From assembly GCA_016182875.1 (NCBI GenBank), contig JACPFQ010000001.1, forward strand, positions 20-64,019: a stretch of 64,000 bases of DNA. The letters are read 5' to 3'. Every line of letters begins with the position of its first letter. Positions within the stretch are counted from its first letter, which is position 1. Below, piece by piece: positions 9,406 to 61,023 of the stretch. A program made the position numbers and the translations under genes. The DNA is from Candidatus Doudnabacteria bacterium (GTDB lineage Bacteria > Patescibacteriota > Doudnabacteria > UBA920 > O2-02-FULL-48-8). A model generated the notes under the pieces. That model was not told the origin of the DNA and searched no databases. It was given only the letters and a program-made list of their open reading frames with translations.

Positions 9406-9780
9406 TCAGGCCTTGCTTATTACAGAAAGTATAATAAGAAGCCCAACAATGACGACTACAACAAGAAGTACTAATTGAACCTTGTTTTTAACTTGATTAT
9501 AGTTCGGAAATCTAGTTCTACCTAGATTATCAAGTTCTTTGGCAGCTTTTCCATACAAGTAAACTCTCATGAAGCCGAAGATAATGGAGAGAACACTAAT
9601 TACAAATAAGGGGATTACAACATTTAGAGTATATCCACTTCCGTGGACGCAGTCCAAAACAAATATATTTCGGGTTGGGCTATTGCAATCTACATTCAAA
9701 CTCAAGTACCACAAGTAGCCTGAGAGTAACAGAAGTATTACTCCGGCTATGATTAGTGAGCTTTTAAAATATCTGCTCAT
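9406..9780 (-). CDS. small membrane protein (3 TM)
   Basis: hydrophobic segments. Confidence 0.4.
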   Translation of the reverse strand: MSRYFKSSLIIAGVILLLLSGYLWYLSLNVDCNSPTRNIFVLDCVHGSGYTLNVVIPLFVISVLSIIFGFMRVYLYGKAAKELDNLGRTRFPNYNQVKNKVQLVLLVVVVIVGLLIILSVISKA

Positions 9781-11408
9781 TTTTTGTTTCTGACAGCAGC
9801 CTTCACGAATTCCCTAAACAGCGGTCCCGGATTAAGCGGTCTTGATTTGAATTCGGGGTGGAATTGGGTGCCGACGAAGAACGGATGGTCTTTGAGCTCG
9901 ATTATTTCCACGAGGAGGCCGTCGGGGGTGGTGCCGGAGAAGACGAAGCCTTTGGCTTCGAATTGTTTGCGGTATTTGTTGTTGAACTCATAGCGGTGGC
10001 GGTGGCGCTCGAAAATTCTTTTTTGGCCATAGGCCTTCAAGGCTTTACTGCTGTCCTTGAGGATACAGGGCCACGCGCCCAAGCGCATGGAAGCGCCATA
10101 ATCTTTTTTCAAAAGTTTTTTCTCCTGTTCGGGCATCAAGCCAATCACTGGATGTGGGGTTTTGGGGTCAACTTCAGTTGTATGGGCGCCTTTAAGACCC
10201 AAAACATTGCGGGCAAACTCGATAGTGGCCATCTGCATGCCGTAGCAGAGTCCCAGGTATGGGATTTTCTTGGTGCGGGCGTAGGTTATGGCTTTAATCA
10301 GTCCTTCGACTCCCCTTTTGCCAAAGCCCGGGGTAATCACGATGCCGTCATGGCCTTTCAAAACTTCTGCTCCGGATTTTTCCAGTTTCTCCGAATCAAT
10401 CCAGACCAGTTTCGGCTTGACCTTGTTGTGCCAGCTGGCGGCCTTGAGCGCCTCGATTATCGAAACATAGACGTCGGACAAATGATAATCGCCGGTGGCG
10501 AAGTATTTGCCGACTACGGCGATTTTGACTTCTTTTTTGGCGTTTTTGATATTACGGACTAATTTTTTCCACTCGGTCAAATCTTTTTTGGCAGCCGGCA
10601 GACCTAATTTTGCCAGGATTTTCTCGCCAAGCTTCTGATTCTGCATGACCAGCGGCACTTCGTATATGGACTGGACGTCGGGGGTGGAAATAACGTCGTC
10701 TTTTTTGACGTTGCAAAACAGCGCGATGCGCTCTTTTCTTTTGTCGTCAACTGCAAATTCGGAGCGGGCAATAATAAAATCAGGCTGAATCCCCATGGAG
10801 TTCATAAGCCTGACTGATTGCTGGACCGGTTTGGATTTCATCTCGCCGATGTTGCTGGGGATCGGAAGATACGCGACATGGACTTGAATGACGTCCTGCG
10901 GGTTTCTAAGCCTCATGATGCGGGAAGCTTCGAAGAAAATGGCGTTTTGGTATTCGCCGACCGTGCCGCCGAGCTCAATCATGACGATGTCGGACTTTTT
11001 GCCGGCAAGCTTGATGCGGTGGATGATTTGGTCCGTAATGTGCGGAATGGCCTCGACGTCTTCGCCGTCGTATTCAAACGCGCGCTCCCGGCGCAGGACC
11101 TCGGCGTAAACCTGGCCGGTAGTCACATAATTTACTTTGGATAAATTGACGTCGAGGAACCGCTCGTAATGCCCCAGGTCCTGGTCAGTCTCCATGCCGT
11201 CCTCAGTGACGAAGACTTCGCCGTGCTCCTGGGGCCGGATGGTGCCCGCGTCCTGGTTGAGGTACATGTCGATTTTGATCGGCGAGACGGCGTAGCCTCG
11301 GCTTTTTAAAATCGCCGCGATGGACGCGGTCGTGATTCCTTTGCCGAGGCCCGAAATGACCCCGCCGGAAACGAAAATGTATTTTGTGGCGCGCTTGTTC
11401 TTAGCCAT
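9777..11408 (-). CDS. pyrG: CTP synthase
   Basis: MAKNKRATKYIFVSGGVISGLGKGITTAS...; glutamine amidotransferase C-terminal LGLCYGMQ; start at the internal Met after 12 upstream codons. Confidence 0.93.
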   Translation of the reverse strand: MAKNKRATKYIFVSGGVISGLGKGITTASIAAILKSRGYAVSPIKIDMYLNQDAGTIRPQEHGEVFVTEDGMETDQDLGHYERFLDVNLSKVNYVTTGQVYAEVLRRERAFEYDGEDVEAIPHITDQIIHRIKLAGKKSDIVMIELGGTVGEYQNAIFFEASRIMRLRNPQDVIQVHVAYLPIPSNIGEMKSKPVQQSVRLMNSMGIQPDFIIARSEFAVDDKRKERIALFCNVKKDDVISTPDVQSIYEVPLVMQNQKLGEKILAKLGLPAAKKDLTEWKKLVRNIKNAKKEVKIAVVGKYFATGDYHLSDVYVSIIEALKAASWHNKVKPKLVWIDSEKLEKSGAEVLKGHDGIVITPGFGKRGVEGLIKAITYARTKKIPYLGLCYGMQMATIEFARNVLGLKGAHTTEVDPKTPHPVIGLMPEQEKKLLKKDYGASMRLGAWPCILKDSSKALKAYGQKRIFERHRHRYEFNNKYRKQFEAKGFVFSGTTPDGLLVEIIELKDHPFFVGTQFHPEFKSRPLNPGPLFREFVKAAVRNKK

Positions 11409-11410
11409 AG

Positions 11411-11480
11411 GTTTTAGATTGCTTCGTCGCTTCGCTCCTCGCAAATGCGCATCTGCGAGCGACCGTAGGTCGCGTGGCAG
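11411..11480 (-). repeat. dispersed hairpin motif, copy A (CTCGCAGATGCGCATTTGCGAG...CGACGAAGCAATCTAAAAC) ending 2 nt before the pyrG ATG
   Basis: 22-bp near-perfect palindrome plus GAAGCAATCTA box; other copies at 49895, 60484, 62385. Confidence 0.6.
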
Positions 11481-11481
11481 T

Positions 11482-11910
11482 CTATTCCACCGCCTGTACG
11501 TCCAGCTTTATTTTAACCTTAATATCCTCGAAAAGTCTAGCCTCGGCTTCATAATTGCCCAGGGTCTTAATCGGCTGGCTCAGCGTGATTTGCTCGGCGG
11601 TCAAGCCGGCCGCCCGGGCTATTTCTGCTTCGTGAATCGCGGCGAAAAGCGTTTCTTTATTAGCTTTAGCCTTGATGCTGAATGTTTTACCCTCGAGCTT
11701 GCGCTTAAGGGCCAGCGCCGCATCTCGCTGTTTAAGAATTTTATCCTGGCGCTCTTTTTCTTCTTTTTGGACTTTGTCCAAAAGCTGGCTGGTCGCAGGC
11801 AGGGCCAAATGCCTCGGAATCAAAAAATTTCTGGCGTAGCCATCGGAAACTTCCTTGACATGCCCTGCTTTGCCTAGTCCCTTAACTTCTTTTGACAAAA
11901 TAACCTTCAT
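11482..11910 (-). CDS. rplI: 50S ribosomal protein L9
   Basis: [32 protein letters not shown]. Confidence 0.9.
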
Positions 11911-48565: not shown

Positions 48566-49401
48566 CCGAGTTTCCTGACCTTAATATTAGCAGTTTCTTG
48601 CGTAAGCCATTCATCAAAACCTTGAGATCTCACCAGGATATGCTTCACGTGCCAAAGCCGGTTGCCGCTTTCTTCCGCAGTTCCTATCGGCCAGATGACA
48701 TGGTAACCCAAACGGCTCACAAAAACTTTCCGCTGAATTTCTCCCATTGGGCCTTTCTGGATTTGCGCTTCAAGCTCAGGCAGGAGTTCTGATTCATTGA
48801 AAAACCCAAGGTCGCCTCCAAATTGAGCGGAAACCTCATCATCGCTTTCGAGTTTGGCCAATTCCTCAAAATTGCCGCCATTGAGGACTTGTTCAAGAAT
48901 GTTTTGCGCCTTATCGTATAAATCGCGATTTACGCCGTAGTCGCTGTTGAAGTAAGTCTTTAGACTGGCCTCAATCGCTGCGGGCTCAACGACGTATTTG
49001 ATAAACAACTTTTTATCTCCCTCAAAATAGTCCTCAAGAATTTTGCCGTACTCGGAATCCCGGCCGTTTGTGTAAAAAGCAAATTCTTCATCGACCTTGC
49101 TCTGCCAATCAAGGCGCAACTCAGCGGCCAGGGCCGCTGCTTTGGTCCGTTTAATAAGCTGGTCAAAGGCGAAACCTGCAGAAACGTCCGACTCAAGCCG
49201 TTTGAGAATTTGCAAATTTTCCTCAACATCTCGGATAGACAGCGTATTGCCGTCCATTATTACGGCGGGCAGGATTTTTTTAAGCGTTGAAGCCAGGGCG
49301 TTATCACTTCCAGTGCTATAACCATAAACAACTGTGACGCCAGCGACAACAATAACCACCGCAGAAATTATCGCGGGTTTTTTACTAGAAAAAATAGTCA
49401 T
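48556..49401 (-). CDS. secreted SurA/PrsA-like chaperone with parvulin-type PPIase region
   Basis: N-terminal TM/signal; C-terminal LWHVKHILV parvulin-like motif. Confidence 0.45.
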   Translation of the reverse strand: MTIFSSKKPAIISAVVIVVAGVTVVYGYSTGSDNALASTLKKILPAVIMDGNTLSIRDVEENLQILKRLESDVSAGFAFDQLIKRTKAAALAAELRLDWQSKVDEEFAFYTNGRDSEYGKILEDYFEGDKKLFIKYVVEPAAIEASLKTYFNSDYGVNRDLYDKAQNILEQVLNGGNFEELAKLESDDEVSAQFGGDLGFFNESELLPELEAQIQKGPMGEIQRKVFVSRLGYHVIWPIGTAEESGNRLWHVKHILVRSQGFDEWLTQETANIKVRKLGRD

Positions 49402-49741
49402 ACCATTTTTTCGGGTTGCTCTTTTCTTCCTTCTTGGAATCTGGAGCTTCAGAAGTGACACTTGGCGGCAGTGAAACTGCGAACTCCCCTTCCTTTTTCA
49501 AATTCAATTTATCCCGGGCCGCCCGCTGAGCGTATTCGTCGGTCTTGTAATACTTAATAAGCTCAGACAGCTCGGCGTTATCCTTAGAGATGCTATCGGC
49601 TTTTTCCTGGAGGGTTTTGATTTCCTTTTGGACTTCACGCTTTTGCATGAACAATTTTGAAGACATGACCAAAATCAATGCCAAAAGAATCATTAATCCA
49701 ACGCTTGCCAGCTTTGATTTTAAAATTGACTTTATTTCCAT
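49385..49741 (-). CDS. septum formation initiator FtsB/DivIC-like
   Basis: N-terminal TM followed by a coiled coil EVQKEIKTLQEKADSISKDNAELSELI. Confidence 0.55.
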   Translation of the reverse strand: MEIKSILKSKLASVGLMILLALILVMSSKLFMQKREVQKEIKTLQEKADSISKDNAELSELIKYYKTDEYAQRAARDKLNLKKEGEFAVSLPPSVTSEAPDSKKEEKSNPKKWYDYFF

Positions 49742-49854
49742 ATCAATCAGGCAAAAAGCGGGAACATGGTGAATAAAAGCATGCCGGCAATCATAAGCAC
49801 GGCCAGAATCAGCCAAATTCTTTGTAAGTTCTTTCGGTTTCTCATAAAATTTTT

Positions 49855-49964
49855 GGTTTAGACTGCTTCGGCCTCGGCCAATTCTTGACCAAGCCTCGCA
49901 GATACGCATTTGCGAGGAGTCCCGACGAAGTCGCAGGCGACGAAGCAATCTAACCTCAAGCTTT
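49855..49964. repeat. dispersed hairpin motif, copy B (TTAGACTGCTTCG...CTCGCAGATACGCATTTGCGAG...CGACGAAGCAATCTAA), abutting the lepA stop
   Basis: same palindrome and GAAGCAATCTA box as 11411, 60484, 62385. Confidence 0.6.
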
Positions 49965-51737
49965 TTACTTCTTTAAAATCGCCAAAAATGCTTCCTGGGG
50001 AATGTCCACCGAACCGATTCTTTTTAATCGCTTCTTGCCTTTCTTCTGTTTTTCTAAAACTTTCATCTTCCGAGTGACATCGCCGCCGTACAATCCCTTG
50101 GTCACATCCTTGCGCATCGCAGGAATCGTCTCGCGCGCTACGATTTTCCCGCCGATGGCCGCCTGGATTGCAATCTCGAACTGCTGGCGGAGAATCAGCT
50201 CCTTAAGCTTGAGCGTCAAGTTTCGCCCCTCAATTTCTGCCACCGATTTGTGTACAATTATTGACAAGGCATCGACTTTCTCGCCGGCAACCAATATGTC
50301 CAGCTTGACCAAATCAGCTGACCTAAAGTCGAGCAGTTCGTAGTTGAGCGAGGCGTAGCCTGAGGACACACTTTTAAGTTTATCATAGAAATCAATGATG
50401 ATGTTCGCCAGCGGAAGCTCCGCGGTAATCAACACCCGGTCATTACTTAAGTATTCCATGTTCTTATACATGCCGCGACGACCGGTGATTAATTCCAAAA
50501 TCGGACCGATATATTTTTGCGGGGCCAAGATTTCCACGGACACCCACGGTTCTTCGATTGATTCAAACAACGACGGATCGGGTAATTCTGACGGTGTGTG
50601 TATGGCCTTCGATTCTTTATTTTTAAGTATTACATGGTACTCAACTGATGGAGCGGTTAAAACCAGGCTCAGTCCATACTCTCGGCTCAGTCGTTCCTGG
50701 ACAATGTCCATATGCAATAATCCTAGAAACCCCGTTCTAAATCCGAATCCCAGAGCGGGAATGTTTTCTGGTGTAAATTCCAGAGCGGCGTCATTGAGCT
50801 TAAGTTTTTCTATGGCATCGCGAAGCAACGGATAGTCGTCCCCGGCTACGGGAAAAATACTGGCGAAGACCATAGGTTTGACTTGTTTATATCCAGGTAG
50901 TGCCGGTACTCTATTACGGCGCAGTATTAGAGTATCGCCAACTCGCGCATTCTTCACGTCACGCAAACCTGTCACAACATACCCGACCTCACCCGCAAAC
51001 AATTTAACAGACGGGAGGAATTTGGGTCTAAAATATCCTACTTCCAAAGCATCAGCCATAGTTTGTGTTCCAAGCATCTCAATTTGGTCTCCTTTATTTA
51101 TTTCCCCGTCTACGATTCGGACGAATGCAACAACACCACGGTGGGTATCGTATGTGGAATCAAAAATTAAAGCTCTTAAGAGTTTGGTCGGATCACCCTT
51201 GGGAGCTGGAATTTTTTCTGCGACCGCTTGCAAAATTTTATTAACCCCCTCACCGGTCTTACCCGAAGCATAAAGTATTTCTGATTTATCAAAGCCGAAC
51301 ACTTTAATCATTTCTGACGCGGTTTTTTCACGATCAGAATTTGGCAAGTCGATTTTATTCACCACTGGAACAATTTTCAAATTATGCTGTCGCGCCAAAT
51401 GGACATTGGCAAGCGTCTGCGCTTCGATGCCCTGCGTGGAATCAACGACCAAAATCGCGCCTTCGCACGCCGCCAGAGAACGGGAAACTTCGTAAGTAAA
51501 ATCGACATGGCCTGGGGTATCGATAAGGTTCAGTACATAGCCGTTCCATTCCATGCGCACTGGTTGAAGCTTAATCGTAATCCCCCGTTCACGCTCCAAA
51601 TCCATGGTATCCAAAAGCTGCTCTTTCATTTGCCTTTTTTCCACTGTCCTCGTCATTTCCAAAAACCGGTCAGCCAGCGTGGACTTGCCATGGTCAATAT
51701 GCGCGATAATGCAAAAATTTCTGATTTTTTCCTGCAT
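49965..51737 (-). CDS. lepA: elongation factor 4 (LepA)
   Basis: MQEKIRNFCIIAHIDHGKSTLADR... G domain plus LepA C-terminal domain. Confidence 0.95.
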   Translation of the reverse strand: MQEKIRNFCIIAHIDHGKSTLADRFLEMTRTVEKRQMKEQLLDTMDLERERGITIKLQPVRMEWNGYVLNLIDTPGHVDFTYEVSRSLAACEGAILVVDSTQGIEAQTLANVHLARQHNLKIVPVVNKIDLPNSDREKTASEMIKVFGFDKSEILYASGKTGEGVNKILQAVAEKIPAPKGDPTKLLRALIFDSTYDTHRGVVAFVRIVDGEINKGDQIEMLGTQTMADALEVGYFRPKFLPSVKLFAGEVGYVVTGLRDVKNARVGDTLILRRNRVPALPGYKQVKPMVFASIFPVAGDDYPLLRDAIEKLKLNDAALEFTPENIPALGFGFRTGFLGLLHMDIVQERLSREYGLSLVLTAPSVEYHVILKNKESKAIHTPSELPDPSLFESIEEPWVSVEILAPQKYIGPILELITGRRGMYKNMEYLSNDRVLITAELPLANIIIDFYDKLKSVSSGYASLNYELLDFRSADLVKLDILVAGEKVDALSIIVHKSVAEIEGRNLTLKLKELILRQQFEIAIQAAIGGKIVARETIPAMRKDVTKGLYGGDVTRKMKVLEKQKKGKKRLKRIGSVDIPQEAFLAILKK

Positions 51738-60335: not shown

Positions 60336-60364
60336 TTGACAAAACGACTAATTTAATAGATAAT
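60336..60364 (+). promoter_or_regulatory. near-consensus sigma70 promoter TTGACA-17-GATAAT pointing into the structured array
   Basis: -35 TTGACA at 60336-60341, 17-bp spacer, -10 GATAAT at 60359-60364. Confidence 0.55.
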
Positions 60365-61023
60365 TGCCTGTCGGTGAGACGATTCTAATGTCTCACCGCC
60401 GGACTGATTTGGACGAAAGAATCCGTGTCTTCAAGACGAGGAGCGGCATGTCCACTCAGTCCGTCCTTTTCTCAAGCATAGACAATCGCATTTGCGAGGA
60501 CCCCGGACTCCGATCCGGGGAACGAAGCAATCTAATCTTGAGAAAGGGTGCGATGTTGCGATTGTTCTTGAATGGACGAAGGGACATGCGCACCCTCGTG
60601 GCGGACGAAAATATTTATGTCCTTTACTGGACGAATGAGGGAGTGTCCGCCACGAAATTTTAAACCGGAGGAATCAAGTTTGGTGAGACGAGGTGCGAGG
60701 TGTCCGCTAGGAGGACGAACTTAGTGGTGTCTCACCACCGGACTGAAAGACGAATCCAAGGATGTCTCTTGTAGACGATGGGTCGTATGTCATTTCAGTC
60801 CGGCCTTTTCCAAATGATTCATCTACGAAATAGAACTCCCCTCTCCTGGAGAGGAGAGGGGTCGGGGGTGAGGTGGATTATTCATTTGGAAAGGGTACGA
60901 GAGTTTCATTGTCCATATAGGACGAACCACCGACTGTACCCTTTTGGCGGACGATTGATAGCATGTCTGAAGTAGACGAGCATGTCTTTGTCCGCTACCA
61001 CGTTCCTTTTCAAGGAGTGCGCC
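60365..61023 (+). ncRNA. candidate structured non-coding RNA array (about 8 stem-loop modules with conserved stems and variable loops) upstream of the recombinase gene
   Basis: stems GGTGAGAC/GTCTCACC, GTGGCGGAC/GTCCGCCAC, AGGGTRCG/CGYACCCT, CCGGACTGAAA/TTTCAGTCCGG; inner hairpins GTCY-N5-8-RGACGA; promoter upstream. Confidence 0.5.

Follow-up and report, generated by a model that had tools for sequence, protein, structure and literature searches.

The hairpin motif that recurs in the non-coding DNA of this 64,000-nt stretch of a Candidatus Doudnabacteria genome (the window) is, with high probability, a divergent Doudnabacteria subtype of the Ssn-related motifs (SRM), known as NTS in Neisseria. 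Judged by its sequence, it is a REP-like, multi-copy intergenic DNA repeat and not a leader of the pyrG gene. The Ssn/SRM system itself has been known since 2025; new is a divergent subtype with an interrupted stem in a host from the Candidate Phyla Radiation (CPR).

Ssn proteins are single-domain GIY-YIG proteins of about 94 aa (cd10448; Chenal et al. 2025, Nat Commun 16:2388, PMC11893778). Their genes are flanked by hairpin repeats, the NTS (CGTCATTCCCGCGMAVGCGGGAATCYRG) in Neisseria and SRM more generally, which are present in hundreds of copies (PMC11893778). The Neisseria protein SsnA binds the NTS solely as single-stranded DNA, not as duplex, as RNA or on the reverse strand, and cuts a few nucleotides upstream of it (PMC11893778). 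Mutagenesis identified the C just past the palindrome as the base most critical for binding, while the three upstream nucleotides (a conserved GTC) matter most for cleavage; mutation of the SsnA residues Y6, Y17 and E64 abolished cleavage (PMC11893778). By analogy, we infer that an Ssn protein acts on the window copies in the source organism. The original prediction had considered a protein-binding element reused in several contexts, which was right in spirit, as Ssn binds this family in the form of single-stranded DNA (PMC11893778). It had also named a simple REP as an outcome that would speak against it; a simple REP is essentially what we found.

Hairpin units in the window

Six copies of the hairpin unit are present at four non-coding sites in the 64 kb (Table 1). 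The unit measures about 35–50 nt. In a covariance model derived from an alignment of 49 units from the window and related genomes, the six units score with E values between 2e-11 and 9e-8, and the next-best match in the window has an E value of about 2. Four exact copies of a 12-mer, CGAAGCAATCTA, are present (11415-11426(-), 49941-49952(+), 60523-60534(+) and 62425-62436(+)), and the core GCGCATTTGCGAG is found at the same four sites with 0–1 mismatch. The 12-mer, the core and the model matches thus bear out the dispersed hairpin family at four sites that had been proposed before.

The copies next to pyrG and lepA had been described as one motif with one hairpin. Each of them is in fact an inverted pair of two unit subtypes, R and L, one half of which had been overlooked. 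Read on the minus strand, the element between rplI and pyrG consists of TAGACTGCCACG-CGACCTACGGTCG-CTCGCAGATGCG followed by CATTTGCGAG-GAGCGAAGCGAC-GAAGCAATCTA, that is, of two inverted units arranged head to head. It spans 11415-11484. On one side, the box is followed by AAACCT and the pyrG ATG at 11408, so that the distance is 6 nt and not 2 nt as first stated. On the other side, the rplI stop codon TAG is formed by the first three bases of the element end (the L-unit tail in reverse complement). The lepA copy (49859-49952) is built in the same way and does not abut the lepA stop codon (49965-49967) but leaves a gap of 12 nt; its L unit closely resembles the L unit located 3' of the ssn gene in another genome (L132). 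The palindromic core that had been thought common to all copies, CTCGCAGATGCGCATTTGCGAG, represents the junction of two units and is restricted to the pyrG and lepA copies, while the array copies share only TCGCATTTGCGAG.

The two remaining sites hold single R units in the arrays on either side of an ORF that resembles TasR. The hairpin CCTTTTCTCAAG...CTTGAGAAAGGG of one array carries a unit at its apex (60489..60534), and a paralogous array hairpin carries the other unit in the same place (62390..62436); the boxes of the two are alike and the inner hairpin differs.

Beside the lepA-proximal element, there is a possible ORF of 32 codons (MRNRKNLQRIWLILAVLMIAGMLLFTMFPLFA, window 49747-49845(-)) that starts 13 nt after the element and extends up to a DivIC-like gene (49385-49738). 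The predicted product is hydrophobic; the ORF may encode a genuine small membrane protein or may be spurious.

Table 1. Coordinates of the hairpin units and of associated features in the window
Feature	Position	Strand	Details
pyrG (CTP synthase)	9777..11408	-	Pfam CTP_synth_N E 2e-103, GATase
R-type SRM unit, pyrG side	11415..11447	-	CATTTGCGAG-GAGCGAAGCGAC-GAAGCAATCTA; model 11412-11450(-), 50.2 bits, E 1.3e-10
L-type SRM unit, rplI side	11450..11484	+	CATCTGCGAG-CGACCGTAGGTCG-CGTGGCAGTCTA; model 11447-11487(+), 47 bits, E 8.6e-10
rplI (ribosomal protein L9)	11482..11910	-	Pfam Ribosomal_L9_N/C
L-type SRM unit, lepA-proximal pair	49859..49904	-	model 49856-49907(-), 40.3 bits
R-type SRM unit, lepA-proximal pair	49907..49952	+	model 49904-49955(+), 53.3 bits, E 2e-11
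lepA	49965..51737	-	Pfam GTP_EFTU, LepA_C
Promoter-like TTGACA-17-GATAAT	about 60337-60366		
Arrays flanking ORF 61024-62283	about 60340-61020, 62284-63000		26 variable segments, period ~345 nt
Single R-type SRM unit, array upstream of TasR-like ORF	60489..60534	+	model 60486-60537(+), 51.4 bits
Single R-type SRM unit, array downstream of TasR-like ORF	62390..62436	+	model 62387-62439(+), 39.3 bits
Terminator-like hairpin with T run	about 62985-63012		

Architecture and covariation of the units

The 49 aligned units give the consensus nCGCAT-TTGC-GAG-GA-(variable hairpin)-GAC-GAA-GCAA-TCTA. Structurally, this is an imperfect hairpin with a defined orientation. Its 5' flank is short and reads CGC in the window units (C4 is conserved in at least 90% of the aligned units); next comes the lower stem, A(T)TTGC/GCAAT. 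Between this stem and an apical GC hairpin, which is free in sequence and in length (about 7 to more than 40 nt), lies an internal loop rich in purines, GAG(GA)/(GA)CGAA, in which tandem G.A pairs are possible. All 49 units have a C directly after the stem (GCAAT), and this C precedes a TA.

The 4-mers of the lower stem pair within the unit and covary: TTGC/GCAA in the R type, CTGC/GCAG in the L type, and TCGC/GCGA. The column pair 7-46, for example, is UA in 35 and CG in 13 of the 49 units, and up to six pair types are seen per position of the inner stem. Overall, 83.4% of the cells in the alignment are paired, compared to 68.5% in shuffles, and the covariation score of 0.335 (shuffled: 0.12) was reached by none of 500 shuffles. 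When the register is slid, only 24–53% of the positions pair. The variable hairpin therefore does covary among the 49 units, in agreement with the compensatory variation claimed in the original prediction. The pyrG-proximal GAGCGAAGCGAC is barely self-complementary and forms a GC-GAA-GC hairpin only, flanked by G.A pairs. In the R units, the positions adjoining the inner stem are G.A or A.G and not Watson-Crick pairs.

In 178 of 207 units, folding is better on the sense strand than on the antisense strand (G.U pairs: 138 vs 99). In the paired units, and likewise in the units around ssn genes, these better-folding strands lie on opposite DNA strands, which disfavors a function of the pair as a single transcript and, as indirect evidence, fits a model in which each end is recognized while the DNA there is single-stranded or extruded. 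Ribozymes were considered as well. The full and circularly permuted forms suggested a four-way-junction ribozyme, which we rejected since half units occur alone, covariation supports pairing within the unit and the sense strands of the pairs are opposite. Self-cleaving permuted ribozymes (hammerhead, twister, etc.) were dismissed because Rfam gave no match even up to E 10 and the covariation does not support pairing across units.

Association with ssn genes

In Doudnabacteria relatives and six other lineages that we examined, the units bracket a gene for a GIY-YIG protein of about 96 aa. One Doudnabacteria locus (L002) contains a GIY-YIG ORF of 98 aa exactly between the tails of a unit pair. 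The layout in this locus and in two others (L034 and L132), all with units of the window's own subtype, is an R unit, 4 nt, the ATG, and at the other end a TAG that consists of the first three bases of an L unit. Homologous genes of about 96 aa in Thermoflexales, Nitrospirota and three other lineages are flanked by a variant, GTCATTGCGAG...CGAAGCAATC. In a set of 80 metagenome ssn loci, a unit was present within 250 nt downstream of the gene in 68/75 and upstream in 61/77 cases, compared to a background rate of 0.21 units per kb elsewhere in these loci. The commonest layout is +|ORF|-, and in about half of the loci the inverted unit begins 1–3 nt past the ssn stop codon. A tblastn search of the 64-kb window itself did not find an ssn gene.

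The proteins associated with the units in relatives have 95–98 aa and PF01541 as their sole domain. The Doudnabacteria protein is 46% identical to SsnA of N. gonorrhoeae (E 2e-26), and a tblastn search with the Thermoflexales protein led to a 94-aa ORF in a chromosome-sized N. gonorrhoeae record, with canonical NTS copies on its flanks. With the Doudnabacteria protein as query, the family comprises more than 6,500 database matches at E <1e-5, with identities of 60–78%, an unusual degree of conservation across phyla. In the numbering of one member (P0001), Y20 and E68 are invariant and Y9 is conserved in at least 90% of the sequences; Y6, Y17 and E64 of the Neisseria protein appear to correspond to Y9, Y20 and E68. 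A PDB search with the GIY-YIG protein gave no match, and an NCBIfam search returned only sub-threshold matches to group I intron endonucleases and UvrC.

The repeat frames correspond as well, with GTC-ATTCC...GGAAT-C-TAG in the NTS and CGC-AT(T)TGC...GCAAT-C-TA in the window. The published SRM pattern, HGTCWYN(0-2)YYVSBRHN(0-5)WNVSBRGN(0-2)RNCYNB, is an operational search sequence and not a functional definition. It has 0 matches in the window and in the related loci L001, L002, L034, L035, L038 and L039, matches 1 of the 80 metagenome ssn loci, and finds 5 matches in the Neisseria control (L131). Since the pattern misses the window units and all but one of the 80 ssn loci, the window units represent a distinct SRM subtype. 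Units around ssn genes in other phyla carry the GTC triplet, whereas the window units carry CGC.

By homology with Neisseria SsnA, recognition of a unit would require that its sense strand has become single-stranded and has folded, as might happen in replication, in transformation or when a cruciform extrudes, and the nuclease would then nick the DNA a few nucleotides 5' of the unit. The units may have spread by a REP/RAYT-like process, either selfish or domesticated.

Two observations were made around the ssn genes. Automated gene calls let ssn ORFs run on into the adjacent repeats (P0074, P0092; L001 7600-8000), which produces peptide tails such as MSLRGATATWQS... and ...IASLRSQ; translated repeats read, for example, VIARSKATKQS or QIASRFQSARND. 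These repeats are a likely source of spurious "hypothetical proteins" in many genomes. In L034 (650-1500; GCA_034680565.1, JAXOUH010050713.1), a RAYT-like Y1_Tnp gene (900-1379) is located directly upstream of ssn. The repeat on the flanks of this gene is a different hairpin of its own (TAGCGGAAGGCTTYAGCCTTCC), so that two distinct REP-type systems are neighbours in this locus.

Distribution and arrangement in other genomes

We searched the GTDB representative genomes (one per species) with the pattern CATTTGCGAG-N8-38-GAAGCAATCTA and obtained 33 loci, with about 8 expected by chance according to our own arithmetic. Most of these loci belong to Ca. Doudnabacteria MAGs with several copies each, the remaining ones to Saccharibacteria, other Patescibacteria and a few other bins. 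Three arrangements recur: head-to-head pairs with the tails TAGA...TCTA pointing outward, tail-to-tail pairs with the heads CGCAT...ATGCG pointing outward, and single units. In the Doudnabacteria MAGs, all units lie between ORFs, often a few nucleotides from a stop or start codon. The L9 proteins of the window and of Ca. Doudnabacteria RIFCSPLOWO2_02_FULL_48_8 share 62% identity.

Of the related contigs, three from the same species carry the rplI-pyrG element and all of them end inside it, with no empty site seen among the three. Breaks of this kind are the usual assembly behaviour of multi-copy repeats. More distant relatives (L123/L124 and L125) keep the ftsX-rplI-pyrG synteny and do not have the element; their rplI-pyrG spacers read TAA+44 nt+ATG and TAA-aattctagac-ATG (10 nt). 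Insertion of the element is suggested by this absence in relatives with about 62–64% identity in L9, which is a comparison between lineages and not a polymorphism within the species. The element would then lie next to pyrG because it was inserted at one of the few places that are non-coding in a compact genome.

A separate observation concerns a Balneolaceae chromosome (OZ252011.1, L031 7605-7767) that contains two Whalefall-1 motifs (RF01762; 72 and 58 bits), which form a divergent pair with some 50 nt between them. This looks like a repeat layout rather than a single sRNA gene.

Units at gene junctions

In several independent cases, including ssn itself, an ATG is located 4–6 nt past the tail of a unit. 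Together with a stop codon TAG inside the opposite tail, this layout is seen at pyrG in the window, at four or five independent host genes of other Doudnabacteria and at ssn. Much of the 4–6 nt spacing is explained by the short intergenic gaps of compact genomes, but it could also hint at an added RNA-level role: on a polycistronic mRNA, the stop codon and the start codon would be brought close to each other by the terminal stem, TAGAYTGC/GCARTCTA. It is possible, though unlikely, that the head-to-head SRM pair serves as an intercistronic module for coupling, processing or stability in addition to being an Ssn target. If so, the idea of a leader in the original prediction would be right with respect to the effect, but not to the origin.

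Alternative explanations

The units might also belong to a generic REP or MITE that is unrelated to Ssn and is moved by a Y1 transposase (RAYT) or a TA-targeting transposase, with the ssn association arising by coincidence from shared non-coding space. The inverted pairs in both phases do resemble the BIME/REPIN grammar, and a Y1_Tnp gene adjoins ssn in L034. Moreover, the two ends of the element read TA...TA, and excision leaving one TA would restore GAA-TAA-aacct-ATG between rplI and pyrG. However, the hairpin flanking the L034 Y1_Tnp gene is a different one, and the units abut the ssn ORFs at fixed positions (the 68/75 loci mentioned above, against the background of 0.21 per kb). The TCTA tail has its counterpart in the conserved C-YRG tail of the NTS rather than in a target duplication. 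Taken together, this makes a generic REP or MITE distinctly unlikely. A TA target-site duplication is plausible at rplI-pyrG, but we do not claim one, since TCTA belongs to the conserved SRM tail. Membership in the REP/RAYT class, where a Y1 transposase gene is flanked by repeats, was likewise rejected, as the flanked gene encodes a GIY-YIG protein.

A different possibility is suggested by the locus that holds the single units. The ORF at 61024-62283(+) is a member of a family that is spread across the CPR and carries the annotation of IS110-like transposases; it has a weak match to Pfam Transposase_20, and its sole sequence match in the PDB is 9MTY, the TasR complex from the TIGR-Tas study, with an E value of 5e-7. 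By eye, the places of the catalytic D and E of IS110 enzymes are taken by IGIR/LGGSG in its N-terminus, and its GC content of 64.5% compares with the 44–54% that are typical of the window. The array unit is composed of a stem, GACGA, about 10 variable nt, GTCY-loop-RGAC, GA, another 10 or so variable nt and a stem. Alternate array hairpins, CCTTTTCCAAAT...ATTTGGAAAGGG (60806-60895 and 62703-62790), have the GC-rich apex CCCCTCTCC-TGGA-GAGGAGAGGGG, then TCGGGGGTGAGGTG; the two copies lie within a 187-nt repeat that is 95% identical. According to the TIGR-Tas study (Faure et al. 2025, PMC12045711), one clade of TasR proteins in the CPR has a RuvC domain that is inactive and is accompanied by "stem arrays". 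The segment 60337-63012 of the window looks like a TIGR-Tas system of this CPR type.

The SRM unit could therefore be a working part of the IS110/TasR-like locus, either as target or donor site or as an RNA module of the array, and the copies at pyrG and lepA would be footprints of its activity. Two of the four sites are indeed inside the arrays and in the same structural position; IS110-family enzymes are known to target REPs (PMC12288879), and the dRS3/NTS repeats of Neisseria are the target of a phage recombinase (PMC11893778). This reading is nevertheless very improbable. A syntenic locus (L130, Ga0642625_26627) has the same order as the window, mraY, array-ORF-array and Peptidase_S11, with an ORF that is 55% identical, and its arrays are devoid of the unit: the apices are short and AT-rich at the places where the window has SRM units, and an SRM pair is found just after the array terminator. 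Conversely, loci found by the motif pattern possess neither a homologue of the ORF nor arrays. The 26 variable array segments match the units at chance level only, and for the same reason bridge-RNA or TIGR guides aimed at the motif were rejected. Because L130 shares the arrangement, the TIGR-like locus appears to be a stable, syntenic resident and not a recently moved insertion sequence. The SRM copies in the arrays, in turn, are probably secondary insertions into non-coding, hairpin-rich DNA, given the L130 apices without units and the unmatched array segments.

The original prediction had suggested a structured RNA that acts in cis as a regulatory leader of pyrG; such an element would be comparable to the CTP-sensing pyrG leaders of Firmicutes. 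The element does fill the entire rplI-pyrG spacer up to 6 nt before the ATG, and it folds stably, with -27.6 kcal/mol in pyrG sense (z -2.0). It is also probably carried on the rplI-pyrG mRNA: the sole strong promoter-like site in a promoter scan is located upstream of rplI, at 11941-11912(-) (11/12 matches), and the spacer has no terminator-like site, so that rplI and pyrG are apparently under one promoter. However, the other strand, antisense to pyrG, folds better (-33.1 kcal/mol, z -3.9), and the element is missing from the rplI-pyrG spacer of the two relatives described above. The lepA copy, which is of the same element type, has the opposite orientation relative to the transcription of its host gene, and units occur in many unrelated contexts. 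The only terminator-like site found is at 11316-11334(+), inside pyrG and on the opposite strand. Neisseria SsnA does not bind RNA (PMC11893778). At gathering thresholds, Rfam reports six tRNAs only for the whole window, and up to E 10 there is nothing meaningful on single copies, around the ssn loci or on the arrays. A dedicated pyrG leader is thus extremely improbable, and any influence of the element on pyrG expression would be a side effect and not a conserved control of pyrG.

Implications

As SRM, the window units extend the Ssn/SRM system into the CPR and to a large cross-phylum clade of ssn genes. The repeats GTCATTGCGAG...CGAAGCAATC and the variant CGCATTTGCGAG escape the published SRM pattern, and surveys based on this pattern therefore undercount the system. 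Each repeat subtype is a candidate for a new specificity in single-stranded-DNA tools. The finding further explains why CPR assemblies show a class of intergenic "hairpins", together with spurious small ORFs and broken contigs, and it is a caution against reading such hairpins in CPR genomes as riboswitch-like leaders.

Comparison with known systems

In Bacillus and Lactococcus, pyrG is preceded by leader attenuators that depend on CTP-sensitive reiterative transcription. The window element shares with them the position directly upstream of pyrG and the capacity to form hairpins, but it has no terminator/antiterminator pair, is not conserved together with pyrG and occurs at unrelated genes in either orientation. 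MITEs of the Correia (CREE) type are intergenic elements of about 70–110 bp with TA-bounded inverted ends that are co-transcribed with their neighbours. The window element is similar in size, in its intergenic location, in its probable co-transcription and in its inverted ends that start and finish in TA; it differs in being composed of two autonomous hairpin units, in occurring also in a circularly permuted form and in its link to a GIY-YIG gene.

REP/BIME elements with their RAYT (Y1) proteins, and the dRS3-flanked NIMEs of Neisseria, come closer. They too are short intergenic hairpins that occur as singles and as inverted pairs of two subtypes, with an enzyme gene flanked by inverted copies and recognition as single-stranded hairpins. 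The enzyme for units of the window type is a GIY-YIG nuclease instead of a Y1 transposase, and the units are only putatively mobile. Chenal et al. themselves liken NTS/Ssn to REP/BIME/RAYT (PMC11893778).

Compared to the NTS and SRM described so far, the stem of the window subtype is interrupted by the conserved purine-rich loop and carries a free apical hairpin, the upstream triplet is CGC and not GTC, and the 5' stem arm has an extra T. Two linked subtypes, R and L, form pairs here both head to head and tail to tail. The host is a member of the CPR, which is absent from the main text of PMC11893778, and the 64-kb window is without an ssn gene. In all other respects listed here, the resemblance holds: the window units are oriented hairpins with an upstream triplet, an ATT-SC...GS-AAT stem and an invariant C followed by TAG or TA; units of this type are multi-copy and intergenic; and in relatives, inverted copies flank genes for GIY-YIG proteins of about 94–98 aa, among them the Doudnabacteria protein with its 46% identity to SsnA, in which the residues matching the catalytic Y/Y/E are conserved.
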